22,979 nucleotides of DNA, from assembly GCA_024404275.1 (NCBI GenBank), contig JAKSQG010000008.1, positions 1 through 22,979 on the forward strand. The letters are read 5' to 3'. The notes beneath the pieces were generated by a model that was not told the origin of the DNA, made no database searches, and was given only the letters and a program-made list of their open reading frames with translations. The position numbers and the translations under genes were made by a program. The DNA is from Clostridia bacterium. Its GTDB lineage: Bacteria > Bacillota > Clostridia > Christensenellales > Aristaeellaceae. Numbering within the stretch: position 1 is the stretch's first letter; each line of letters begins with the position of its first letter. Shown in pieces: positions 1 through 22,979 of this stretch.

Positions 1-504
1 CCTCGTTGGCTTCCTTGTCAGCGGTGAGGGAGGCAATGGCAGCCTCGCTGGCCTCCTTGTCGGCGGTGAGGGAGGCGATGGCGGCCTCGTTGGCTTCCTT
101 GTCAGCGGTGAGGGAGGCAATGGCAGCCTCGCTGGCTTCCTTGTCGGCGGTGAGGGCGGCGATAGCAGCCTCGCTGGCTTCCTTGTCAGCGGTGAGGGAG
201 GCGATAGCAGCCTCGTTGGCTTCCTTGTCGGCGGACAGGGCAGCGATGGCGGCCTCGTTGGCTTCCTTGTCAGCGGACAGGGCAGCGATGGCAGCCTCGT
301 TGAGTTCCTTGTCAGCGTACAGGGCAGCGATGGCGGCCTCATTCGCTTCCTTGTCATCGGTGATGGAGGCAATGGCCGATTCGTTGGTCTCCTTGACCGC
401 AGTCAGGGCGGCGATGGCGGCTTCATTGGCTTCCTTATCGGCGGACAGGGCAGCAATGGCAGCCTCGTTGGCTTCCTTGTCGGCGGTGAGGGCGGCAATT
501 TCAG
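1..504. repeat. 42-bp tandem repeat, 12 consecutive units (encodes the 14-aa coiled-coil repeat on the minus strand)
   Basis: Units start at 1, 43, 85, 127 ... 463. Consensus is cctcgttggcttccttgtcagcggtgagggaggcaatggcag. Units 1-42 and 85-126 are identical. The repeat degenerates after about 504. Confidence 0.95.
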
Positions 505-694
505 CCGCGTTTGCTTCGTTGGCGGCGTTCAGCTCGGCAATGCGCGCCGTATCGGCGGTACACTGTTCACTCAGCTGCCGCACTGTGGTCTCGGCATCCG
601 TGCGCTTGTTTTTTTCATCGATAAAAAAGTACGCAAGAACACCGCCGACCGCAATCATAATGGCCAGCAGAATTGCCAGTACCTTCTTTGCCAT
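1..694 (-). CDS. Membrane-anchored coiled-coil repeat protein, N-terminal part only (gene runs off the left edge of the window)
   Basis: Absent from the ORF track because it has no stop in the window. Minus-strand ATG at 694-692, GGAGG (revcomp of 703-707) 8 nt upstream. Hand translation: MAKKVLAILLAIMIAVGGVLAYFFIDEKNKR (one TM helix), then a 14-aa unit AAIA(A/S)LTADKEANE repeated to the window edge. The frame stays open down to position 2. Confidence 0.8.
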   Translation of the reverse strand, partial: MAKKVLAILLAIMIAVGGVLAYFFIDEKNKRTDAETTVRQLSEQCTADTARIAELNAANEANAAEIAALTADKEANEAAIAALSADKEANEAAIAALTAVKETNESAIASITDDKEANEAAIAALYADKELNEAAIAALSADKEANEAAIAALSADKEANEAAIASLTADKEASEAAIAALTADKEASEAAIASLTADKEANEAAIASLTADKEASEAAIASLTADKEANE

Positions 695-748
695 GGTCAG
701 GACCTCCGTTTTTTTCAGCGGAATACAAGGAAGCGGGGGAGAGGGGAA

Positions 749-1715: not shown

Positions 1716-2831
1716 ATGGCAGTACAGCCGGACAGCCGCGGAACGTGCATCAGGGTCAACCTGACAGCCCTTGCCGAAAACGCCGCGGCACTGAAAAAAG
1801 CCGTGGGCGCCGTTCATATGATGGCCATTGTCAAGGCCAACGCGTATGGTCATGGCATGGTGCAGGTAGCCCGCGTCGCGTTGGAGAACGGCGCTGATTT
1901 TCTGGGCGTGGCGACCCCGTAGGAGGGTCAGGCGCTGCGTGAGGCGGGCTTGACCGCCCCGGTGCTGGTGTTGGGCAATACCGGCATCGATGGTGCGCGC
2001 ATTTGCGCCGCAAACGGCATTACCCAGGCGGTCTGCGATGCAGACGGCGTAAGGCGCATGCAGCGCGCCTGTGAAGAACTTCAGATGACGGCGTAGGTAC
2101 ATCTCAAGTGCGATACCGGCATGAGCCGCATCGGTGTGAGAAGCGAGGAAGAGGTACAGCAGGTACTGGATGCGTTGAACGAGTGTCCTGCTGTGAAGCT
2201 CACCGGCGCGTTCATGCATTTTGCGGCGGCAGACGGCGACGAAGCCTTTGCCCGCAAACAGTTTGACACCTTTATGCGTCTGACGGCACCGCTGCCGGCG
2301 GGCATTGTGCGCCACGCGGCGGCCAGTGACGCTTCCATCCGCTTCCCCTGGGCACGGCTCGATATGGTCCGCGAGGGCATTTCGCTCTACGGCTGCCCGG
2401 GCGTGCAGAGTGGGATCACGCTGCGTTATGCCATGAGCTTTGAAACACGGGTGGAATTTATCAAGACACTGCCTGCGGGCGAAACGGTGGGCTACGGCCG
2501 CACCTGGACGGCTCCGCGGGAAACACGTGTGGCGACCCTTGGCGTGGGCTATGGTGACGGCTATCTGCGTTCCGCCTCCGGCAAGGCACAGGTGCTGATC
2601 GGGGGACAGCTGTGCCCCGTGATCGGGCGTGTATGCATGGATCAGATCATGGTGGATGTGACCGATGTGCCCGGTGTGCAGGAAGGCGACTGCGCTGTAT
2701 TGATGGGGCGTCAGGGCGAAATGGAGATCACCCCCGATCAGCTGGCTGCCTGGGCGGGCACCATCAGCTATGAGGTCATGCTCTCTCCCCATCCCCGCGT
2801 ACCCGTCCTATATTATGAGGAAGGAAAATAA
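1716..2831 (+). CDS. alr: Alanine racemase, full length (371 codons) only if two in-frame TAG codons are read through
   Basis: One continuous frame: 1716 to TAG(1920), to TAG(2094), to TAA(2829). PLP-lysine motif MAIVKANAYGHG lies before the first TAG. VHLKCDTGMSRIG follows immediately after the second. Further downstream come VGYGRTW, GVGYGDGY, GRVCMDQIMVD and ISYEV. No frameshift. Confidence 0.9.
1920..1922 (+). other. In-frame TAG codon 1 in alr (context acc ccg TAG gag ggt)
   Basis: 1920-1716=204, divisible by 3. Protein context GVATP*EGQALREAGL. Confidence 0.95.
2094..2096 (+). other. In-frame TAG codon 2 in alr (context acg gcg TAG gta cat)
   Basis: 2094-1716=378, divisible by 3. Protein context ELQMTA*VHLKCDTGM. 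Confidence 0.95.
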
Positions 2832-5577: not shown

Positions 5578-5712
5578 ATGTTCCGTACCTATCAGCCGAA
5601 GAAGCGTCAGCGCAGCAAGGTGCATGGTTTCCGTGCCCGTATGTCCACCAAGAACGGCCGCAGAGTACTGGCTGCCCGCCGCCGTCGTGGCCGCAAGGAA
5701 CTGACGGTCTGA
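5578..5712 (+). CDS. rpmH: 50S ribosomal protein L34
   Basis: Too short for the ORF track. Hand translation: [53 protein letters not shown] upstream. Stop TGA. Confidence 0.97.
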
Positions 5713-9590: not shown

Positions 9591-10600
9591 TTCGGCTGGC
9601 GTTTGTAGGCTCCAGCTTTATTGCCGACCGGCTGATGAACGGCCTCAAGCTGGTGGAGGGCTGGCAGCTGACGGCCTGTTATTCCCGCGATGCCGTCCGC
9701 GCGGCGGAAAACGCCGTTCGATGGGGAGCAGAACACTCCTATGGTGACTGGGAAGCCTTCTGTAAAGCCGATTGCTATGACGCCGCGTATGTGGCGACGC
9801 CCAACATCTGCCATTTTGAGCAGACGCGGGACCTGCTGTGCAGCGGCAAGCATGTGCTGCTGGAAAAGCCTGCGACGCTGACGGCGGCGGAGTTTGCCGA
9901 GCTGATGAAAACGGCAGAGCAGCATGGCGTTTGCCTGATGGAGGCCATGCGCCCCATGCATCTGCCCGACCTTCCGCTGATCGAAGCTGCGATGGAGCGG
10001 CTTGGCGTGATTCGCTATGCTGATTTTCCGTATTGCCAGTATTCTTCCCGTTACGATAAATACCGTGTGGGCATTGTGGAAAACGCCTTCAAGCCCGAAT
10101 TGGCAGGCGGTGCGCTGATGGATATTGGCTGTTATGCGGTCAGTTGGATGGAGCGGCTGCTGGGGATGCCCAAAACGCTCCGGGCAGATACCATCTATCT
10201 GCCCGGCGGCATTGACGCGGTGACCACGCTGATGGCAGCCTATGAGAATTGCATCGCGGTGGTCAGCGGCTCCAAGGTGCATCAGAGTATCCGCCCCTGT
10301 GTGATCGAGGGGGAAAAGGGCACCCTGACGCTGTCACCCTTCCCGATGCCAAACAAGATGCGTCTGGAGCTGCGGGACGGCACGGTGGAAGAACAGCCCA
10401 TCCGCTGCTGTGCGGCAGATATGTGCTATGAAGCGGAGGATTTTCTGGCCCTGTGCCGTGGTGAACGGGATGGTGCGGACGACCTGCGTCATTCGCTCCA
10501 TGTTATGCGCCTGATGGATGAAGCCAGAAGGCAGACCGGCATTGATTTTACCCGGGAGCAATCCGAAAAAGCACACAGGGAGGAAATGCTATGGCGGTAA
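9587..10600 (+). CDS. Gfo/Idh/MocA family oxidoreductase
   Basis: Rossmann N-terminus MIRLAFVGSSFIA and ...GKHVLLEKP. The ATG overlaps the manA stop (ATGA). An alternative TTG start at 9560 with AAGGAG 4 nt upstream cannot be excluded. Stop TAA. Confidence 0.85.
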   Translation: MIRLAFVGSSFIADRLMNGLKLVEGWQLTACYSRDAVRAAENAVRWGAEHSYGDWEAFCKADCYDAAYVATPNICHFEQTRDLLCSGKHVLLEKPATLTAAEFAELMKTAEQHGVCLMEAMRPMHLPDLPLIEAAMERLGVIRYADFPYCQYSSRYDKYRVGIVENAFKPELAGGALMDIGCYAVSWMERLLGMPKTLRADTIYLPGGIDAVTTLMAAYENCIAVVSGSKVHQSIRPCVIEGEKGTLTLSPFPMPNKMRLELRDGTVEEQPIRCCAADMCYEAEDFLALCRGERDGADDLRHSLHVMRLMDEARRQTGIDFTREQSEKAHREEMLWR

Positions 10601-10914
10601 CAGTCTATCACAAGCTGGTACGGGACCGCATCCCGGAAGTCATTGCGGCGGCGGGAAAGACCTGCGTGACCGAAGTGCTGCCGCAGGAAACATATATCGA
10701 GATGCTGGATGCCAAGCTGAATGAAGAGCTGGCGGAGTATCAGGAAAGCAAATCGATGGAAGAATTGGCCGACCTGCTGGAAGTGGTGCGGGCGGTGGCT
10801 GCCGCAAGGGGAAGCTCCATCGAAGAGGTGGAAAAGATCCGCTGCGAAAAGGCTGCAGCCCGCGGCGGGTTTGAAAAGCGCCTGCTGCTGACCGAGGTAC
10901 GGGACGAAACGTGA
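10591..10914 (+). CDS. MazG-like all-alpha NTP pyrophosphohydrolase family protein (PRA-PH-like)
   Basis: YHKLVRDRIPEVI...EELAEYQES...EELADLLEVV, typical of small house-cleaning NTP-PPases. GGGAGG RBS. Overlaps the upstream stop by 10 nt. Stop TGA. Confidence 0.75.
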   Translation: MAVTVYHKLVRDRIPEVIAAAGKTCVTEVLPQETYIEMLDAKLNEELAEYQESKSMEELADLLEVVRAVAAARGSSIEEVEKIRCEKAAARGGFEKRLLLTEVRDET

Positions 10915-10931
10915 TCACAAGGGAGAAAAGG

Positions 10932-11639
10932 ATGCGCGTACTGGATATCGATCTGGATTTTTTCCTGGCAGATTGCTGCCCGTTGGCAGACGAGGGACAG
11001 CGTCCTGAACTGCAAGGGCATGAACCATGGGAAGAGGCGGAGGTCATTCGCTTCCTCGAGGAGCATTGCGGATTGAACGCCGAAGCACCTATTCCGGGGC
11101 GTGTGTTTGAGACGCATGACGAGGCGCTGCTGTTCTGGGAGGAACAGATAGCAAAAGGTACGCTGACACCGCCCTTCCACGTGACGCATGTGGATGCGCA
11201 CAGTGACCTTGGCATCGGCTATCCCGGTCCCGGTTTTGTGCTGTACAATGTGCTGTCCATGAAGCCGGAAAAGCGCTTGAATCTGCAGGCATTTTATGAC
11301 CAGTGCAAGCTGGACGAAGCAAACTATTTGTTGTTTGCTCTTGCCATGCGCAGGGTTTCATCACTGGACAACGTGCGTAACCCGAAGTCCCGCCCGGACA
11401 TTCCCAAGGAGCTTCTGAATGCGGATGGGGATATCCAAATGCAAAGCCTGACCTCACGCATGTTTGAAAAGCAGAACGGTCCCGAACCGGTCATCCCCTT
11501 CAGTGTCTATGATGACTGGAAAAGCTTTCATGCGCGGGAGCCTTATGACTTTGTCACACTGGCCATTTCACCCCGCTACGCGCCGCGGGAAGCGGACGCG
11601 CTGGCACCGGTTATCGAACGCTATATCAAAAAAATATGA
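10932..11639 (+). CDS. UPF0489 family protein
   Basis: N-terminal RVLDIDLDFF and HVDAHSDLG resemble the UPF0489 family as I remember it. The ATG at 10932 with a GGGAG RBS is preferred over the GTG at 10911. Stop TGA. Confidence 0.7.
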   Translation: MRVLDIDLDFFLADCCPLADEGQRPELQGHEPWEEAEVIRFLEEHCGLNAEAPIPGRVFETHDEALLFWEEQIAKGTLTPPFHVTHVDAHSDLGIGYPGPGFVLYNVLSMKPEKRLNLQAFYDQCKLDEANYLLFALAMRRVSSLDNVRNPKSRPDIPKELLNADGDIQMQSLTSRMFEKQNGPEPVIPFSVYDDWKSFHAREPYDFVTLAISPRYAPREADALAPVIERYIKKI

Positions 11640-11644
11640 TAAAA

Positions 11645-11680
11645 CAAAGCCTCTGCAATGATCTGCAGGGGCTTTGCTGT
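11645..11680 (+). terminator. Candidate terminator after the UPF0489 gene
   Basis: 13-bp stem caaagcctctgca / tgcaggggctttg (one G-U pair), 6-nt loop, weak T-run. Confidence 0.5.
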
Positions 11681-11699
11681 ATGAAAGTCAATACGGGAC

Positions 11700-11729
11700 A
11701 AAAAAAGAGGCGGGCAATGTGCCCGCCTC
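11700..11729 (-). terminator. Rho-independent terminator for the minus-strand gene 11741..13099
   Basis: gaggcgggc aatgt gcccgcctc. On the minus strand the stem is followed by TTTTTTT (A-run 11700-11706). Confidence 0.85.
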
Positions 11730-11740
11730 AAATAGGTTGA

Positions 11741-13099
11741 TTATTCGCCCATCAGGGAGTTGATCAGCACGGTCATGGCTTCGGGAGCAACGTTGCCGAT
11801 GGCACCAATCAGGGTGAAGATGTTGTTCTGGATATCCGCCATCACGGCCTGATATGCTTCGGAACTTTCATCCGCCAGATCTTCAATGTTCACAACGGTC
11901 AAGCCGCTCAGGTCAACGCCCTCCGCGGTGGCTTCGGTTTCGCTGCAGCTCATATACACGGTGACGATATCCATGCCCATCGCGGGATCGACGGTCAGAG
12001 CCATCTCAACGCCGTTTTCGTTGGGAACGAGGCTGCAGGTGGACTTGATGACATCGCCGGCAGTATACAGGTAAGCCGCGGCGCCCACAGTGCCGCCCAT
12101 GCTGGCGGACTCGATGTGGAAGTAGATGTCGCTCAGGTTGCTGCCGCTGGCGATGGCGGTAACGGCAGCATTCCAGTCGCCGCTGTACTGCGCCATGGTA
12201 TCGGTTACGATATCCAGCGAGATGGCGGCGTCCTCACCGCTCTCCATGACCTCAACGGTTACATACAGGGTATCGGTAGACAGGGCAATGGCGTTGTCGC
12301 CTTCGGACTCATAGGTGCTTACAACGGCCAGCAGCTGGTTTTCTTCGGCAGGAGCGGCTTCGAACTCCGCCAGCAGCATGGGCAGCACGTCTTCGGCGGT
12401 GAGGGTCACACCGGCCTGGGCGCTGATCTCATCCAGCAGCATCTGCATGACGGGGGCCAGCAGTTCATCGCTGAAGGCACGGGTCAGCACGGCGGCAGCC
12501 ATGGCGTTGATATCGTTGGAGGTGATGTAGTAGCTGGTGACGTTGCCTTCCTGTTCAGAGACCATGTTTTCCAGCACGGCGGCGATATCGCTCACGTAGC
12601 CCATCACGTCCAGCATGATGGCACCCATCAGCTCTTCATCGCCCAGCACGCTCTCGATGGAACTGAAGAAAGCTTCGGGGTCAACGGATTCATCGTTTAC
12701 AGTGGTGGTCACGCCAAGAGTGGTGTAGATATTATCCATATCCAGCTTGATGGCATAGGAGGGGAAGAGGGAGCTGACGAGGTAGATATCCTCGCCTTCC
12801 ATGGCGCCGGCAAGGCTCAGTACGGGGGCTACGCTGCCGTTGCCGTCATCCAGACCAATCAGCACGGTACCGGCGGTTTCGCTGACATTGACGGACAGGA
12901 CGGCCTTTTCCACCAGGGTCAGCAGCGCGGCGGTCAGCTTGGCTTCGGCATTGGCTTCCGCATCGTCGAGGGCGGGCAGGTCTGCCAGCAGGGCGTCGTT
13001 GATATCCACACGCAGTACCATCTGCTGCGTTTCAGCCAGACCGCTTACGCAGGACAGAAGCATCAGCAGGGACAGAAGAATGGCAATTGTCTTTTTCAT
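11741..13099 (-). CDS. Secreted or lipid-anchored acidic protein of unknown function
   Basis: 452-aa ORF. Signal peptide MKKTIAILLSLLMLLSC with a possible lipobox LLSC. Acidic, Ala/Val/Thr-rich. Has its own promoter and terminator. Stop TAA. Confidence 0.8.
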   Translation of the reverse strand: MKKTIAILLSLLMLLSCVSGLAETQQMVLRVDINDALLADLPALDDAEANAEAKLTAALLTLVEKAVLSVNVSETAGTVLIGLDDGNGSVAPVLSLAGAMEGEDIYLVSSLFPSYAIKLDMDNIYTTLGVTTTVNDESVDPEAFFSSIESVLGDEELMGAIMLDVMGYVSDIAAVLENMVSEQEGNVTSYYITSNDINAMAAAVLTRAFSDELLAPVMQMLLDEISAQAGVTLTAEDVLPMLLAEFEAAPAEENQLLAVVSTYESEGDNAIALSTDTLYVTVEVMESGEDAAISLDIVTDTMAQYSGDWNAAVTAIASGSNLSDIYFHIESASMGGTVGAAAYLYTAGDVIKSTCSLVPNENGVEMALTVDPAMGMDIVTVYMSCSETEATAEGVDLSGLTVVNIEDLADESSEAYQAVMADIQNNIFTLIGAIGNVAPEAMTVLINSLMGE

Positions 13100-13134
13100 G
13101 TGAGCAGGTTTCCTTTCATTATTTTATTGACTGT

Positions 13135-13163
13135 ATTATAACACAAAAGGCGTGGGCCTTCAA
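13135..13163 (-). promoter_or_regulatory. SigA-type promoter for 11741..13099 (TTGAAG, 17 nt, TGn-TATAAT)
   Basis: On the minus strand: TTGAAG (13163-13158), 17-nt spacer, tgtTATAAT (-10 at 13140-13135). Confidence 0.6.
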
Positions 13164-13167
13164 CCTG

Positions 13168-14595
13168 TCAATTGAGGCATCCGATCAGGCGGGCGAGGAT
13201 TTCGGACATGACGGACTGCAGCTCTTCGGCATTCATGCTGTCCAGCACCCGCGCAGAAGAATCTGCTTTTTGCAGGTTGATGGGGGCCCCTGTACGAGAG
13301 CTGTAGTACAGCGTGATGTCGGTGCCGCCTGTCAGGTCCTGCCACATGAGACTGCCTTCCAGATAGGAGGGACGGTCGTCAAACTCGCCCAGCGGCCAGG
13401 CGTGGGCGCACAGGTTGACGGTCAGCAGCTGGGCGTGAAAATCGCTTTGCTCATCGGGCTGCAGCACCAGCACCAGCATGGCATCCTGACGGCGGGCGTA
13501 GCGGGTATCTTCCTCTGATACGACCAGGCCGCCGAAGCTGCCGCTCAGGGCGAAGGTGCCGCCGGAGTGTCCGCCATCGGTGCTGTCGGAGGAAAAGCTG
13601 CCGCTCAGCGCCAGACTGTCGGCCTGCTCATTGTCAAAACGGATCGCGGTCACGCGCTCGGGGGTGGTCAGGAGCACTTCGGTATGGGGGAGGGCGGTGA
13701 GGTTGCGTGTGGTGATCAGCACGGAGATATTGCCCGCAAACGGCAAAAAAAGCTCCCAGGAATCCATATAGCCCGAGGAGTCATAGTCTCTTCGCAGCGT
13801 CAGGGGGGCGGTCATGCCGCTGTTGTACAGTGCGGACATCAGCACAGGCAGCATACCGGGCGTCAGGAAGGCGTCTTTTTCCGCTTCGGTCAGGGAAGCT
13901 CCCAGCGCTGTCATCAGCGCTTCGTCGGCATAGAGCTTGCTCAGCAGCCGCACAGCCATGGAAGAAAGCGCGTCGGGGGCAATGACGGAATCGGCACGCA
14001 TCGAGTAGGTTCCGTTTTCGGCACGGATGACGCTGATCTGCGTGTAACCGGCAAGCCATTCGGAAATATCGGCGTAATAAGGGCTGAGCAGGTTTTCCGG
14101 CAAGCCGTCCGCGGTAACGTTTATCAGCGCGTGGATCAGCGAGGGCCAGCTTTCTCCCTGCAAGGCATAGAGCATATCCCACACGCCGTTCTCTCCGCGC
14201 GGCAGGCTGAGCGCGCTGCCTTCGGTCAGACCGGAAAGAATGGTGCGGTCGCCGATGCCGGTGGCAACAGCGGTCAAAAGGTCGGTCTCTTTTTCTGTCA
14301 GTGTCAGACGGAGCTGGGATTGCCCGAAGGTGGCTTTGGCGCGGGAGAGAACATAGGAGCCGGACAGCTTCAGACCGGCGGATTTTTGCTTGAGCAGCCC
14401 CCACATCTCGGGGTCCATGCCAAAGGGGGCGGCGCCGCCCAGGGTAGCGGTACATTCAAAATGATAGGTGGAGTTGGCGTGGATCTGCCGCCTGATCAGG
14501 GCATAAACATCATAATCCGGTACCTCGGCGTGAGCGGGAAGGATCAGCCCCGGCAGCAACAGCAGGCACAGGAACAGGGAAAAGCATTTTTTCAT
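13168..14595 (-). CDS. Secreted protein of unknown function
   Basis: The ORF-track ORF is trimmed to the ATG at 14595, with GGAGGA upstream. Signal peptide MKKCFSLFLCLLLLPGLILPAHA/EV. 475 aa. Stop TGA. Confidence 0.8.
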   Translation of the reverse strand: MKKCFSLFLCLLLLPGLILPAHAEVPDYDVYALIRRQIHANSTYHFECTATLGGAAPFGMDPEMWGLLKQKSAGLKLSGSYVLSRAKATFGQSQLRLTLTEKETDLLTAVATGIGDRTILSGLTEGSALSLPRGENGVWDMLYALQGESWPSLIHALINVTADGLPENLLSPYYADISEWLAGYTQISVIRAENGTYSMRADSVIAPDALSSMAVRLLSKLYADEALMTALGASLTEAEKDAFLTPGMLPVLMSALYNSGMTAPLTLRRDYDSSGYMDSWELFLPFAGNISVLITTRNLTALPHTEVLLTTPERVTAIRFDNEQADSLALSGSFSSDSTDGGHSGGTFALSGSFGGLVVSEEDTRYARRQDAMLVLVLQPDEQSDFHAQLLTVNLCAHAWPLGEFDDRPSYLEGSLMWQDLTGGTDITLYYSSRTGAPINLQKADSSARVLDSMNAEELQSVMSEILARLIGCLN

Positions 14596-14644
14596 CGGGT
14601 TCTTTCCTCCGCAAGCGGCGGTTATATCACCGCTGTGCCTTTCT

Positions 14645-14673
14645 ATTATATATGAAAGCCGCGGTTTTGAAAA
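14645..14673 (-). promoter_or_regulatory. Candidate promoter for 13168..14595 (TTTTCA, 17 nt, TATAAT)
   Basis: On the minus strand: TATAAT at 14650-14645, -35-like TTTTCA at 14673-14668. Confidence 0.4.
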
Positions 14674-14709
14674 GACCTTGACCGCCTCTCCGCTCCCTTC
14701 CCGCTTGCC

Positions 14710-14738
14710 TTGACAGTTGTGCGCGGATGTACTAAAAT
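14710..14738 (+). promoter_or_regulatory. SigA-type promoter for the VanW gene (TTGACA, 17 nt, TAAAAT)
   Basis: TTGACA at 14710-14715, 17-nt spacer, TAAAAT at 14733-14738. About 35 nt upstream of the ATG. Confidence 0.65.
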
Positions 14739-14774
14739 ATACTATGGTATATTGGTGGCAAAGGAGAACGTTGT

Positions 14775-16508
14775 ATGCAGTCAGAACCCGAAAGATTCCG
14801 CCGCTCCGCGCAGGGAGCCGGTCAGCGCCGTCCGCAGTATCCGGATGAGGCGCCTTCTTCGGGTGCGCAGAATTCTCCCGCCTATCCCGGACAGAATTAT
14901 GGCCCTCAGGGCGGCTACGGCACCTATCGTGCGCCCGAGCAGGGCAATTACGGCTACAGGGATTATCGGTCTGACATGCCCGAGCCCCGCGGCCGCCGCT
15001 CCGGCGGAGACAAAGAGAGACGCTCCCATGACAAAAAGGGGCATCCCATCGTTTGGCTGCTGGTATGCATCGTCTGTATCGTACTGCTGCTGGTCGGCTG
15101 GCTGAATGTACAGGCACTTTCCACGGTGTATACGCCCGCATTCAATCAGAAGATGACCTATCTGGCAGGGAATACCTTTTATAACGGCGTGCATGTGGAC
15201 GGCATCCACATCGGCGGCATGACCTATGATGAGGCGCATGCCGTGCTGTCCCAGAACGCGGCGTATTCCAACCAGTTTTTCTCGCTGGCGGTCACCATTG
15301 ACGGCATGACCTGGCACATTACGCAAAATGAGCTGCCCCTTGAGCGCAACATTGACGCGATGCTGGAGGAGGCCATGAGCATCGGCCGTCAGAGCGATTC
15401 CGCCACGGTATACTCCGGCCTGACGCCCTTTGAACAGCGCTATCAGCAGATGTGGGCGGCCAACCAGAACGGCGCTTACCTCAACACTTCCATCACTTAT
15501 GACAAGGCGACGCTGCGCTCCCTGTGCGAGACGCTCTCTTCCCGCGTGGGCACGCATCCGGAAGACGCCATGATCTATTCGTTTGATTTCAAGACCCGCT
15601 CTTTTACCTTCCAGAGCGAAAAGCTGGGCACCGCCCTTTCGGCGGAGGAAATCTACAACGCCGTGGCTCCGCAGCTGGACGCCCATAACTATAATGCTTC
15701 CGTCAGCCTGCAGACGCACCCGATCGAGCCCGCGGTGACGGTGGCTTCCCTGCAAAGCTCTTACGGCCTGATTGGCACCTATACGACCTCGACCGAGGGC
15801 CTGACCGGCTATAACCGTACCAAAAACATTGAACTGGCCTGCGCCGCCATCAGCGGAACGGTGGTGCGGAGCGGTGAGACCTTCTCCTTCAATAATGCCA
15901 CCGGCATGCGTACCGTGGATAAGGGTTATCTGCCCGCCGGCGCCATCGCGCAGGGCGCCAGCATTGAAGAGGTTGGCGGCGGTGTGTGTCAGGTGTCTTC
16001 GACCCTGTTCAATGCCGTGGCGCTGGCTGGTATGGAGATCGTATATTCTTCGCCCCATGCCTGGCCCAGCAGCTATGTAGAGCCCGGACGTGACGCCACC
16101 GTGGACTGGCAGTACGGTCAGACGCTGGCCAAATCGCTGGACTTCAAGTTCAAAAACAATTCCAATTTCCCGCTCTATATCGTCGCCTATCTGGATTCGT
16201 CCAGCAACTACAACAAGACACGAAAGGTGACCGTGGAGGTGTACGGCGCTTCTTTGGGACAGGGCGTGACCGTCAAGCTGATCACCGATTGCTATGAATA
16301 TACGCCGGCACCGGCGGAGCCGAGGCTGACCTATGATCCCACGATGGAGTATGGCACCGAGACTGTGGTGGTCAAGGCGCGCGACGGTTATAAGTATCAC
16401 ACCTACCGTGTATATTATTACAACGGTACCGAGACCAAGCGTGAGCTGCTGCGCAACTCCACCTACAGGGTCTATCAGCAGGAGATCAAGTACAACGGCA
16501 CGCGCTGA
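14775..16508 (+). CDS. VanW family protein: disordered N-terminal tail, one TM helix, C-terminal G5-like domain
   Basis: AAGGAG RBS. P/G/Y/Q-rich N-terminus. TM helix IVWLLVCIVCIVLLLVGWL. VanW core GGGVCQVSSTLFNAVALAGMEIVYSSPH. C-terminus TYDPTMEYGTETVVVKARDGYKYHTYRVYYYNG. Stop TGA. Confidence 0.88.
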   Translation: MQSEPERFRRSAQGAGQRRPQYPDEAPSSGAQNSPAYPGQNYGPQGGYGTYRAPEQGNYGYRDYRSDMPEPRGRRSGGDKERRSHDKKGHPIVWLLVCIVCIVLLLVGWLNVQALSTVYTPAFNQKMTYLAGNTFYNGVHVDGIHIGGMTYDEAHAVLSQNAAYSNQFFSLAVTIDGMTWHITQNELPLERNIDAMLEEAMSIGRQSDSATVYSGLTPFEQRYQQMWAANQNGAYLNTSITYDKATLRSLCETLSSRVGTHPEDAMIYSFDFKTRSFTFQSEKLGTALSAEEIYNAVAPQLDAHNYNASVSLQTHPIEPAVTVASLQSSYGLIGTYTTSTEGLTGYNRTKNIELACAAISGTVVRSGETFSFNNATGMRTVDKGYLPAGAIAQGASIEEVGGGVCQVSSTLFNAVALAGMEIVYSSPHAWPSSYVEPGRDATVDWQYGQTLAKSLDFKFKNNSNFPLYIVAYLDSSSNYNKTRKVTVEVYGASLGQGVTVKLITDCYEYTPAPAEPRLTYDPTMEYGTETVVVKARDGYKYHTYRVYYYNGTETKRELLRNSTYRVYQQEIKYNGTR

Positions 16509-16520
16509 GGAGGAGACCGT

Positions 16521-17231
16521 ATGCGAAAAGGCGAATTGCGCCGTCAGGCGCTGCTGGACGTGGCGCGGCAGCTGTTTTATGAAAAAGGCTACCGCGAGAC
16601 TTCGGTGGATGATATCCTGCAGGCGCAGGGCTGCAGCAAGGGCAGCTTTTATCACTGCTTTGATACTAAACTGGATGTGCTGACCGCCATCAGCGAGGAA
16701 AAAGCCGCGGAATGGTTTGATCTGTACTGCAAGACGCCGTGTGCCACCTCGCTGGACCGGCTGAACGCGCTGCTTTATTGCATGCATCCCTTCCGGCAAA
16801 GGGAAGAGCAGTTTTTATCCACTCTGCTGGAGCTGCGCTCCCGATAGGAAAGCGCGGCTGTGGAGGGGGCGCTGCGGGATGCGGAACGCAGACTGTTCAA
16901 GTCCGAAATGGAAAAGATCGTCATGATGCTGTGCGCTTCGGATACGGCGCGTGTGGCGCGCACAAGGCTGGACGCGTTGGTGTTTGAAGCCTTTACCGCG
17001 TTTTATGATGAGATGCTGCTGACCATTGACCTGTGCCGCAAGGACCCGGAAGAGGTGTATTCTCTGCTGCCGCCGGTCATTGATTCCGCACGTTTTTTGT
17101 GGGAGCGTGTGCTTGACCTGCCCTACGGACGATTGGAGATCGTGCGGCCCGAGGAAGCATTGCCCCTGATTTATCGTTTGCTGACAACCGGCACCGACGC
17201 CGGTCAAAACACGGAGGTAACCGAATCATGA
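16521..17231 (+). CDS. TetR/AcrR family transcriptional regulator, full length (236 codons) only if one in-frame TAG is read through
   Basis: HTH motif GYRETSVDDILQAQGCSKGSFYHCFDTKLDVL. ORFs 16521..16847 and 16860..17231 share one frame, separated only by TAG at 16845 plus 4 sense codons. GGAGGAG RBS. Stop TGA overlaps the next ATG. Confidence 0.85.
16845..16847 (+). other. In-frame TAG codon in the tetR-family gene (context tcc cga TAG gaa agc)
   Basis: 16845-16521=324, divisible by 3. Protein context LELRSR*ESAAVEGAL. Confidence 0.9.
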
Positions 17232-18627: not shown

Positions 18628-18644
18628 GAACGAAGGGATTTGAG

Positions 18645-18690
18645 GGGGAGAGGTACGCTTTACGATGCCGAAAAGCATACCTCTCCCCCC
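18645..18690. other. Perfect 12-bp GC-rich hairpin (gggggagaggta / tacctctccccc) just after the VTC gene
   Basis: Arms at 18645-18656 and 18679-18690. No clear T-run follows, so it is only a weak terminator candidate. Confidence 0.6.
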
Positions 18691-18728
18691 TTGACTCTCT
18701 CTTGGAGAAAAGGCGGTCAAAGGTAATA

Positions 18729-18779
18729 AAAAAGCACCCTTGCATTGATGAAAGTCATCAGACATCAAAGCAAGGGTGT
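18729..18779 (-). terminator. Rho-independent terminator for udk (minus strand)
   Basis: 16-position stem, 15 pairs and one mismatch: cacccttgcattgatg (18736-18751) with catcaaagcaagggtg (18764-18779). On the minus strand it is followed by TTTTTT (A-run 18729-18734). Confidence 0.7.
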
Positions 18780-18817
18780 GATATTGTGCGAAAAACTGCC
18801 CTTTCTCGGGTGGGGTT

Positions 18818-18862
18818 TGGGGCGACCATGCTTTCAGGCTCTGAAAGCGTGGTCGCCCCAAC
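18818..18862. other. 21-bp near-perfect hairpin with a 3-nt loop, 6 nt beyond the udk stop
   Basis: ttggggcgaccatgctttcag gct ctgaaagcgtggtcgccccaa, with one G-U pair. No flanking T-run on either strand. Confidence 0.7.
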
Positions 18863-18868
18863 AAAATC

Positions 18869-19483
18869 TTATTCGTTTTTGCTCAGCTCGCTGCGCAGAT
18901 AGCCGGCAAGAATCTCCACGATACGGGCATTCTTGCCGCCGCGGGTGACGATCACATCGGCATCATTGGCATAGTTGCGGATGTATTTTTCATACATCGG
19001 TTTGACCGTGGAACGGTACTGCTCGGAAATGTCCTCGATCTGGCGTCCTCTGTCACGGATGTCGCGCTTGATGCGGCGCAGCAGGCAGATATCGGGCTCC
19101 ACATTGATGTACAGCTTGAGGAACATCTTGTCCCGCAGACGGTCATCAAAGAAGGCATGAATGCCTTCCACCACCACTACATCGGCCGGCTGCAGCATCT
19201 GTGTGGAGGCGGTGCGGCGGTGCTGGGAAAAGTCATACGCCTTACGGGGCACGCTCTTGCCCTCCATCAGGGCACACACATCCCGGTAGAGCAGGTCATG
19301 GTCAAAAATATAAGGCTCATCATAATTGAGCCGGGTACGCTCCTCAAAGGACATATCGGGATGATCCAGATAGTAGGCGTCCTGATTGATCATCACGCTG
19401 GTGGCGCCCACCGCGTTGCAAAGCTCTCTGGCCAGCGTGGTCTTGCCCGAGCCGCTGGCGCCGCAGATTCCGATAATTATCAT
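18869..19483 (-). CDS. udk: Uridine kinase
   Basis: P-loop GICGASGSGKTTLA and ...VVVVEGIHAF...RRIKRDIRDRGR. GGGAGG RBS 9 nt upstream. Stop TAA. Confidence 0.93.
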   Translation of the reverse strand: MIIIGICGASGSGKTTLARELCNAVGATSVMINQDAYYLDHPDMSFEERTRLNYDEPYIFDHDLLYRDVCALMEGKSVPRKAYDFSQHRRTASTQMLQPADVVVVEGIHAFFDDRLRDKMFLKLYINVEPDICLLRRIKRDIRDRGRQIEDISEQYRSTVKPMYEKYIRNYANDADVIVTRGGKNARIVEILAGYLRSELSKNE

Positions 19484-21143: not shown

Positions 21144-22979
21144 ATGCTGAGTGCAAACCTGAAAACCAAGATATCGATGCTGCCCGACAGCCCCGGCTGC
21201 TACCTGATGAAGCACGAGGGCAAGATCATTTATGTCGGCAAGGCTGTCAACCTCAAAAACCGTGTGCGCAGCTATTTTTACTCCAAAGAGCACACGCCCA
21301 AGGTAGCGGCCATGGTGGCGCAGATCGATGATTTTGATATTCTGCTGTGCAGCACCAATCTGGAAGCGTTGGCGCTGGAATGCAACCTGATCAAGCTGCA
21401 CATGCCGCATTACAACATCCTGCTCAAGGATGACAAGCACTACCCTTATGTGCGCATCGACAAGCGGGAGGCGTTTCCGCGGGTCACCATTGCACGGCGC
21501 ATGGTCAAGGATGGCGCGCAGTATTTTGGTCCGTATATCGGTGCCTCGGCGGTGCGGGATGCGCTGGAAGTGATCCGCAAGGCCTTTCCCATCCGCACCT
21601 GCACCCGTAAGCTGCCCAAGGAGCGCCCGGCCCGTCCCTGCGTGAACCATGAGATCGGACGTTGTCTGGGTCCGTGCTGCGGATTGTGCTCGGCGGAGGA
21701 TTACGGCAAGGTCATTGACGGTGTCATCGCCTTTTTGAACGGCAACAACAAGGAGATCATTGAGCGGCTGAAAAAGGAAATGTGGGACGCTTCCGCTGCC
21801 TATAACTTTGAGCTGGCAGCCATGAAGCGTGATGCCATTCACGATATCGAAGGACTGATGGAGCAGCAGAAGGCCATTCAGACGCGTGACAGCCAGCAGG
21901 ATGTGATCGGTCTGGCACAGGATGGACTGGATGCCATGGCGCAGGTGCTCATCATCCGCGATGGACGCATGATCGGCGGCGAAAGCTTTGCACTGCCGGG
22001 AGAGGGCTCGTAGCCGCGTGAAAACGTGCTGACATAGTTTACGCTGCGCTATTATGCCGACCGCATGCCCCCGAAGGAGATTCTGTGTCCCCTGATGGAG
22101 GAGCCGGAAGTGCTGCAGGAGCTGCTGCGCGAAAAGCGGGGCGGCGCTGTCAATATTCAGATTCCGCAGCGCGGGGATAAGCGCGCGCTGGTGCTGATGG
22201 CGGAGCGCAATGCCTGCGACGCACTGGAAAAACGCAATGCCCGTGCGCAGATCAAGGAAGAACGTACCGTTGGTGCTGTCAGGGAGCTGGCGCAGGCACT
22301 GGGCATGAAAACCGTGCCGAGGCGCATTGAGGGCTTTGATATTTCCAACACACAGGGTGTGCTGTCTGTCGCTTCCATGGTGGTGTTCATCGATGGTGAG
22401 GCAGCGCACAGCGAATACAGGCATTTTCGCATCAAGACGGTGGAGGGCGCCAACGATTTTGCCTCCATGAACGAGGTGCTGGGGCGGCGCTTTGAGCGTA
22501 CGCTGCGGGAGGATCCTGCCGAGCGCTGGGTAATGCCCGATATGGTGCTGATCGACGGCGGTCCCGAGCAGCTGCGCTTTGCACTGGAAGCGGTGCATGC
22601 GCTGGGGCTGGAGGTGCCCATGTTTGGTCTGGCAAAGGAGGAAGAAGCCATCTGGCTGCCTGACCGTGAGGAACCCATCCTGCTGGATCATCACACGCCC
22701 GCGCTGCATCTGATTCAGCGCATCCGCGATGAGTCGCACCGCTTTGCCATTTCGTATCACCGCAGCCTGCGCGGAAAGGCGGCGACGCATTCCACGCTGG
22801 AGGATATTCCCGGCATTGGTCCTTCCCGCAGGAGAGCGCTGCTGGCGCACTTTGGTTCCATTCGCAAGATGAAGGAGCTGGATGATCCCGAAGCGCTGCT
22901 GGTGGTCAAGGGGATGACACGCCCCGCGGCGGAGGCGGTCTTTGCCGCGCTGCATCCGAAGGACGAAGAAGAGAAATAA
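21144..22979 (+). CDS. uvrC: Excinuclease ABC subunit C, full length (611 codons) only if two in-frame TAG codons are read through
   Basis: GIY-YIG motif GCYLMKHEGKIIYVGKAVNLKNRVRSYF and the UVR domain lie before the TAGs. RIEGFDISNTQG, IDGGPEQL, IRDESHRFAI and the HhH motif LEDIPGIGPSRRRALL lie after them. One frame throughout: 22011-21144, 22035-21144 and 22065-21144 are all divisible by 3. Stop TAA. Confidence 0.92.
22011..22013 (+). other. In-frame TAG codon 1 in uvrC (context ggc tcg TAG ccg cgt)
   Basis: Protein context ALPGEGS*PRENV. Confidence 0.95.
22035..22037 (+). other. In-frame TAG codon 2 in uvrC (context ctg aca TAG ttt acg)
   Basis: Protein context ENVLT*FTLRYYADRMPPKEIL. 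Confidence 0.95.

Follow-up and report, generated by a model that had tools for sequence, protein, structure and literature searches.

We report evidence that a small, uncultured clade of gut Clostridia reads the codon UAG as sense instead of terminating at it, with glutamate the most probable residue, and we place the probability of this reading at roughly 0.8. The evidence comes from contig JAKSQG010000008.1 of a Clostridia bacterium, of which the stretch analyzed here (22,979 nt, read on the forward strand) is called the window, and from relatives of the same clade. In the window, the alanine racemase gene alr, the gene uvrC and a gene for a TetR-family regulator, here designated tetR, are each interrupted by TAG codons in the reading frame. 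If UAG is a sense codon in this clade, the 3 genes would be ordinary, full-length functional genes that annotation under the standard genetic code cuts into fragments. Glutamate is the residue we favor because the TAG codons lie in several unrelated housekeeping genes, fall at alignment columns occupied by Glu, are either kept or exchanged with GAG and GAA among the members of the clade, and are followed by sequence that is under purifying selection.

In-frame TAG codons in alr, uvrC and tetR

Positions of the interrupted genes and of the codons discussed below are collected in Table 1. The window contains 24 genes with 7,063 codons in total; 3 of these genes carry 5 TAG codons in frame, and no internal TAA or TGA was seen in any of the 24. 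An earlier note on this DNA, made from the letters alone, had described the 2 TAG codons of alr together with their coordinates and flanking motifs, and all of these were reproduced when the open reading frame was re-read. Downstream of both TAG codons, alr encodes the motif GRVCMDQ in addition to the putative catalytic tyrosine, Y260. The latter occupies an invariant column in the alignment of close homologues and is matched in Geobacillus Alr by the tyrosine of SYG, and both it and the lysine that binds pyridoxal phosphate (PLP), K40, align with their counterpart residues in solved Alr structures.

With Glu placed at the TAG codons, the alr product scored 323 bits against NCBIfam model TIGR00492, for which the cut-off is 168. 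With the TAG codons left as X, the Pfam domain Ala_racemase_N extended over residues 14-227, unbroken across both TAG positions, and Ala_racemase_C over residues 239-366. By these sequence criteria, alr is a full-length member of the Alr family (PLP fold type III), and racemase activity of the read-through product is predicted; a peptide that would be diagnostic of read-through with Glu at the TAG position is VALENGADFLGVATPEEGQALR. Similarly, the Pfam domain UvrC_RNaseH (uvrC residues 252-363) is continuous over both TAG codons of uvrC, for which the corresponding predicted peptides are MIGGESFALPGEGSEPR and ENVLTEFTLR. Homologue alignments of alr and uvrC are free of gaps through the TAG positions. 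In tetR, the domain TetR_N lies to the 5' side of the TAG, which separates the DNA-binding domain from the C-terminal half of the protein, and full-length TetR homologues of 226-236 amino acids align across it.

Table 1. Locations of the interrupted genes and of selected codons in the window
Feature	Position	Strand	Remarks
alr (alanine racemase), 371 codons	1716-2831	+	ATG at 1716, stop TAA at 2829-2831; intact if TAG is read as sense
alr, PLP-binding lysine codon (K40 of VKANAYGHG)	1833-1835	+	upstream of both TAG codons
alr, first TAG (codon 69)	1920-1922	+	context GVATP*EGQALREAGL
alr, second TAG (codon 127)	2094-2096	+	directly 5' of VHLKCDTGMSRIG
alr, catalytic tyrosine codon (Y260 of VGYGRTW)	2493-2495	+	downstream of both TAG codons
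tetR (TetR-family regulator)	16521-17231	+	TAG at 16845-16847 (codon 109)
udk, CAG (Gln98)	19190-19192	-	TAG in strain L092
uvrC, 611 codons	21144-22979	+	two in-frame TAG codons; true stop TAA at 22977-22979
uvrC, TAG (codon 290)	22011-22013	+	inside UvrC_RNaseH
uvrC, TAG (codon 298)	22035-22037	+	inside UvrC_RNaseH
uvrC, GAG (Glu475)	22566-22568	+	TAG in sister species

Recurrence of the TAG codons in independent assemblies

The clade is represented by 2 metagenome-assembled genomes (MAGs) at NCBI, GCA_024500545.1 and GCA_045599485.1, and by contigs from Logan and ENA. GCA_045599485.1 (loci L002/L082 and L094) has about 90% nucleotide identity to the window and is referred to as the sister species; strain-level contigs L001, L083, L084, L092 and L093 are 92-98% identical and derive from several unrelated Logan and ENA runs. 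The first TAG of alr is kept in all 4 sequences that bear the gene, including L001, L002/L082 and L083, at synonymous divergence (dS) of up to 0.47. At the second site, L083 has GAG, L001 has GGG and the sister species has AAT. The TAG of tetR is kept in both L092 and the sister species, and those at codons 290 and 298 of uvrC are kept in L092 and L093 and are GAA and GAG, respectively, in the sister species. Exchange also occurs in the opposite direction: uvrC codon 475 is GAG in the window and TAG in the sister species, and udk codon 98 is CAG in the window and TAG in L092; in that strain, gene calling under the standard code breaks udk up into products of 97 and 103 amino acids. Locus L094 of the sister species has further in-frame TAG codons in genes for an ABC permease and a kinase-like protein. 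In all, 9 TAG sense sites were recognized in the clade, 4 of them from the relatives only, and 4 of the 7 exchanges of TAG with sense codons involve GAG or GAA and one involves CAG.

Protein clusters built on the fragments contain 4-11 distinct member sequences each, drawn from NCBI, Logan and ENA. Fragments of GCA_024500545.1 have been deposited in GenBank as separate proteins (alr, MCQ2453147.1 and MCQ2453149.1; the N-terminal fragment of uvrC, MCQ2453173.1; tetR, MCQ2453166.1 and MCQ2453167.1), and those of udk, the permease gene and the kinase-like gene are likewise found there as separate proteins (GCA_024500545.1/GCA_045599485.1). Outside the clade, no stop codon was found inside alr in any of 78 other genome loci, and the few stops seen within high-scoring segment pairs for neighboring genes in other loci are ordinary gene ends. 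A scan of JGI metagenomes with uvrC recovered no member of the clade. The in-frame use of TAG is thus phylogenetically coherent, being limited to one clade and shared there by 2 genomes at the species level and by many contigs of strains. The 5 TAG codons of the window are hard to attribute to chance, because they lie in 3 genes of a set of 24 that has no TAA or TGA in frame and because the same TAG codons recur in independent assemblies. The earlier note, which proposed no residue for these sites, was right to treat the TAG codons as real, and its view of them as a peculiarity of alr did not hold, since the phenomenon is lineage-wide and extends to uvrC, tetR, udk, the ABC permease gene and the kinase-like gene.

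Constraint on both sides of the TAG codons

Ratios of nonsynonymous to synonymous substitution rates (dN/dS) for alr, determined against 3 relatives, were 0.10-0.14 before the first TAG, 0.14-0.16 between the TAG codons and 0.07-0.11 after the second. For uvrC the values were 0.00 and 0.06 on the two sides of the TAG codons, the latter for the C-terminal part. No frameshifts were found in the interrupted genes. We conclude that alr, uvrC and tetR are not pseudogenes, given the dN/dS of 0.07-0.16 to either side of the TAG codons and the Pfam domains that run across them. It had been argued from the alr sequence that truncation would leave the gene dead and that read-through would be required, and the low dN/dS in every segment (0.07-0.16), together with the uninterrupted Ala_racemase_N domain and the TIGR00492 score above cut-off, bears this out. 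A second, intact alr had been named as an observation that would count against the interrupted copy; for the sister MAG, none appeared among the best 80 alr loci of a search that was not exhaustive.

The sequences flanking the 5 TAG codons of the window are unrelated to each other. The base to the 3' side of TAG is G at 3 sites and C or T at the others, and z-scores for folding of the downstream RNA are -2.4, -1.4, +0.6, -0.4 and -0.1. We therefore rejected programmed, context-dependent read-through of the kind directed by selenocysteine (SECIS-like) or pyrrolysine (PYLIS-like) insertion elements, for which these sites share neither a flanking sequence nor a downstream structure. An artefact of a methylation motif or of base calling was likewise rejected, as the 5 flanks differ and the same TAG codons appear in short-read assemblies from other samples. 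A third candidate, split genes with re-initiation of translation, was discarded on the grounds that the stretches from each TAG to the nearest downstream codon that could serve as a start are conserved with homologues (EGQALREAG in alr; PRENVLT and FTLRYYADR in uvrC).

There is one stable stem-loop, GGUCAGGCGCUGCGUGAGGCGGGCUUGACC, which starts 6 nt to the 3' side of the first TAG of alr (window positions 1920-1990; the z-score of -2.4 is for the 120-nt fold at this site). The other 4 TAG codons of the window have no comparable stem-loop, and we do not take this structure to be a recoding signal. The peptide encoded at this position is highly conserved.

Identity of the inserted residue

Homologue columns at the TAG positions were used to predict which amino acid is inserted. 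At alr codon 69, Glu was found in all 30 close homologues; in the wider set of 78 non-clade loci, 56 of 79 alignments had Glu and 13 had Asp, and solved Alr structures have one or the other of these residues. The codon at this position is GAG or GAA in each of the 11 closest relatives that use the standard code. Codon 127, on the other hand, lies in a variable column (Gln 10, Glu 9 and Asp 5, plus others, among the 30 close homologues), at which the closest standard-code relative, L003, has GAG. The statement in the earlier note that both columns of alr vary among homologues is therefore correct for the second TAG and incorrect for the first. Among 120 homologues of UvrC, the column at codon 290 has Glu in 118 and Asp in 2, that at codon 298 is divided between Glu (54) and Asp (56), with Glu in the 44 closest, and that at codon 475 between Glu (67) and Gln (47). 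The udk column is variable, with Glu as the plurality residue (39 of 147). For tetR, the closest homologue has Asp, followed by Gly (33), Ser (14) and Glu (11). Searches of the PDB for the permease and kinase-like sites of the sister species gave distant alignments or none; in the distant alignment obtained for the permease, MalG has Gln at the TAG column.

A Codetta-style calculation over 6 of these columns gave log-odds of +10.5 for Glu, -0.7 for Asp and -5.3 for Gln, and a posterior for Glu of 0.99999, a figure which overstates the certainty since homologues are not independent of each other, although the direction is clear. In the aggregate, Glu dominates as the one residue that is consistent over the TAG columns, 3 of which are variable or uninformative, and these alignments indicate that the residue inserted at TAG is most probably Glu.

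Alternative explanations

Several observations weigh against translation of UAG as glutamate, or fail to favor it. Some of the exchanges noted above are not with Glu codons, namely those of udk with CAG and of the second alr TAG with GGG and AAT besides GAG, and the tetR column is mostly Gly and the permease column Gln in MalG. Usage of TAG as a sense codon is rare, amounting to about 1% of Glu codons (5 among 7,063 codons of all kinds). No tRNA gene was detected with ARAGORN in the window or in the 6 clade loci that the scan covered. Under a model of random nonsense mutation, 55% of one-step opportunities lead to TAG, so that 5 TAG codons of 5 would be expected with P ~0.05. Absence of TAG terminators from about 40 clade genes would arise by chance with P ~0.16, which is not significant. 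Finally, all of the clade sequence comes from metagenome assemblies.

The most serious rival is leaky amber suppression, in which a suppressor tRNA would coexist with a retained release factor 1 (RF1), the meaning of UAG would be ambiguous, and genes with TAG would be expressed at a lower level, possibly for regulation. The small number of TAG sense codons fits such a state, and the absence of TAG terminators, being statistically uninformative, does not speak against it. We nevertheless consider it unlikely. Two TAG codons in an essential cell-wall gene and two in uvrC would multiply the loss of product; the TAG codons persist over dS of 0.2-0.47 and swap freely with GAG and GAA in the manner of neutral synonymous sites; and no true gene end in the clade is TAG. 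A further proposal, that a supE-like tRNA-Gln(CUA) inserts glutamine at UAG, has in its favor that this is the commonest type of natural amber suppressor, that gut phages with recoded TAG usually read it in this way, that udk swaps TAG with CAG, and that Gln occurs at uvrC codon 475 (47 of 120), at alr codon 127 (10 of 30) and in MalG at the permease column. Yet Gln was found in none of the 30 close homologues at alr codon 69 and in none of the 120 at either uvrC codon 290 or codon 298, the exchanges within the clade run mainly to GAG and GAA (4 of 7, as compared with 1 of 7 to CAG), and the log-odds of -5.3 for Gln stand against +10.5 for Glu. We regard the glutamine assignment as quite improbable.

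Among bacteria, UAG has no known natural meaning as a sense codon other than pyrrolysine (Pyl), and some archaea have genome-wide Pyl codes. That UAG specifies Pyl throughout the genomes studied here is, however, very improbable, given that the TAG codons occupy acidic positions which hardly vary, in enzymes unrelated to each other, that they swap with GAG and GAA and not with Lys codons, and that neither a methylamine methyltransferase gene nor a pyl gene is present in about 40 kb of clade sequence. The remaining explanation is that alr, uvrC and tetR are pseudogenes formed through GAG-to-TAG nonsense mutations, or that the TAG codons are errors of sequencing or assembly. The Codetta paper warns that stops within pseudogenes do line up with particular residues, and the P ~0.05 given above for 5 TAG codons of 5 lends random nonsense mutation some room. 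Against this, frameshifts are absent and dN/dS downstream of the stops is 0.07-0.16; the same TAG codons are present across samples, projects and assemblers, with reciprocal swaps between TAG and GAR in different species; and no single motif surrounds the TAG codons that could cause a systematic fault in base calling. We find this explanation hardly credible. Reading of UAG as a sense codon, with Glu as the most probable residue, accounts better for the observations as a whole.

Proposed mechanism and use of terminators

RF1 is the sole bacterial release factor that reads UAG, and near-cognate reading of UAG alone, as in RF1-deficient E. coli, would be expected to insert mainly Gln, Tyr or Trp. 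Such reading is at odds with the Glu columns seen here. We would expect the decoder to be a tRNA with the anticodon CUA that is charged with Glu by glutamyl-tRNA synthetase (GluRS), and the shortest route to it would be a change of C36 to A in the anticodon of a duplicated tRNA-Glu(CUC). RF1 would have been lost, or its activity narrowed to UAA, and release factor 2 (RF2) could then handle TGA and TAA, the ends of every gene seen. In its full form, this proposal amounts to a fourth bacterial genetic code, with UAG completely reassigned to Glu through a tRNA(CUA) derived from tRNA-Glu, RF1 lost, and a bacterium that is naturally free of RF1; we lean toward the full form, with less confidence than we attach to UAG being read as an amino acid. 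ARAGORN found neither tRNA-Glu nor tRNA(CUA) genes in the loci of 50 relatives.

All 24 gene ends in the window are TAA or TGA. Among clade sequences, every gene call that ends in TAG is a split fragment, and the true ends of about 40 genes are TAA or TGA. In standard-code relatives (L003-L081, loci around alr), 199 gene ends comprise 104 TGA, 86 TAA and 9 TAG (4.5%). Given this figure of 4.5%, the lack of TAG terminators in the clade is uninformative, and we dropped the argument for reassignment that TAG is never a terminator. Rarity of TAG terminators in the ancestor may have made the change a cheap one, as in the codon-capture model, after which TAG could arise from GAG by drift as a neutral, synonymous G-to-T change. 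As a separate observation, the low use of TAG terminators in the standard-code relatives may represent a pre-adaptation for reassignment of this codon.

Relation to known genetic codes

Bacteria are known to use three genetic codes (Kivenson et al., bioRxiv 10.1101/2024.09.30.615893), and all known bacterial reassignments of stop codons concern UGA (Codetta paper; KACI preprint), which is read as Trp in code 4 (Mycoplasmatales, some endosymbionts and Eggerthellaceae) and as Gly in code 25 (Absconditabacteria/Gracilibacteria). Like those systems, the present one would be a change from stop to sense that is limited to a clade and shows itself as stops within the frame of housekeeping genes, where they fall on conserved columns. 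In the UGA codes a cognate tRNA and loss of RF2 accompany the change, whereas here the codon is UAG, the predicted residue is Glu, and the factor at stake would be RF1.

The same pairing of codon and residue occurs in eukaryotes. UAR or UAG specifies Glu in nuclear codes of peritrich ciliates and Blastocrithidia nonstop, and in one ciliate UAA specifies Lys and UAG Glu (PMC10553269, PMC12153298); these codes employ tRNA-Glu species with anticodons that match UAR. Eukaryotes have a single release factor, eRF1, whereas the clade has the bacterial two-factor system, in which only UAG would be affected and TAA still terminates. TAG is also a sense codon in recoded gut bacteriophages (code 15, TAG as Gln; Borges et al., bioRxiv 10.1101/2021.08.26.457843), which share an ecosystem with the clade and carry suppressor tRNAs. 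The phages are predicted to infect standard-code hosts and insert Gln, in contrast to the clade, for which the genes concerned are chromosomal core genes (in the neighborhood of rpmH-rnpA-yidD-yidC-jag) and Glu is the predicted residue. In some archaea UAG is read genome-wide as Pyl (Kivenson et al., bioRxiv 10.1101/2024.09.30.615893), the sole genome-wide sense code for UAG in prokaryotes mentioned in this literature. As proposed for the clade, every TAG in those archaea serves as a sense codon, coding density is hardly altered and the change is missed by standard pipelines; the archaeal systems differ in that they use the 22nd amino acid and dedicated pyl genes, while the columns in this bacterium point to canonical Glu. 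In the literature searched, we found no report of UAG as Glu in a bacterium.

If confirmed, this would be a new bacterial code, and no bacterium before it would have had UAG reassigned to a canonical amino acid. It would show RF1 to be naturally dispensable, just as lineages with recoded UGA do without RF2, and it would provide a test case for codon capture, TAG already being ~5% of stops in the relatives. Under standard-code annotation, gene content, completeness estimates and entries in protein databases would be wrong for the clade, and its fragments would pollute protein clusters. A host that reads TAG as sense would alter the picture for many of the TAG-recoded gut phages. A natural pair of an amber-decoding tRNA and GluRS, in an RF1-free background, would also be of interest for genetic-code expansion.

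Other features of the window

The Pfam map identifies the window as a chromosomal core region that contains yebC, alr, rsmD, coaD, rpmH, rnpA, yidD, yidC and jag, followed by vanW, tetR, a VTC-domain gene, udk, mscL, a HAD hydrolase gene and uvrC. The gene rpmH (ribosomal protein L34, 44 amino acids), at about 5578-5712 on the plus strand and upstream of rnpA, fell under the length cut-off of the open reading frame list for the window and was located with the help of genes called in L082 and L083. Upstream of yebC is a gene for a coiled-coil, SMC-like "helix-rich" protein of more than 874 amino acids (window 1-748, minus strand; L002/L082 3-2624, minus strand) with an internal repeat, such that window positions 140-412 match a second site in L002 (2154-2426) at 75%.

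On the minus strand, a 657-amino-acid open reading frame at 13168-15141 shares 367 nt with the 5' end of vanW (14775-16508, plus strand). Over the first ~130 residues, its product is rich in Arg, Cys and Pro and resembles an antisense translation, and the frame shows 56 synonymous and 68 nonsynonymous changes relative to the sister species; probably its start has been set incorrectly, or part of it is non-coding. In L094, positions 10298-13602 hold a cassette for a sugar ABC transporter (2 permeases and a substrate-binding protein), inserted between a DeoR regulator gene and a FAD oxidoreductase gene; the cassette is not present in L092.

Rfam returned nothing in the window at gathering score. 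Between the VTC-domain gene and udk there is an intergenic repeat of about 225 nt (window 18638-18862), copies of which occur in L092 (7094-7312 and 9600-9822) and L094 (9325-9544), 80-91% identical and next to differing gene ends. It had no match in Rfam and no tRNA. The repeat contains 2 strong, G+C-rich hairpins, for example GGGGCGACCA...TGGTCGCCCC, and could be a mobile terminator-like element or one resembling a miniature inverted-repeat transposable element.
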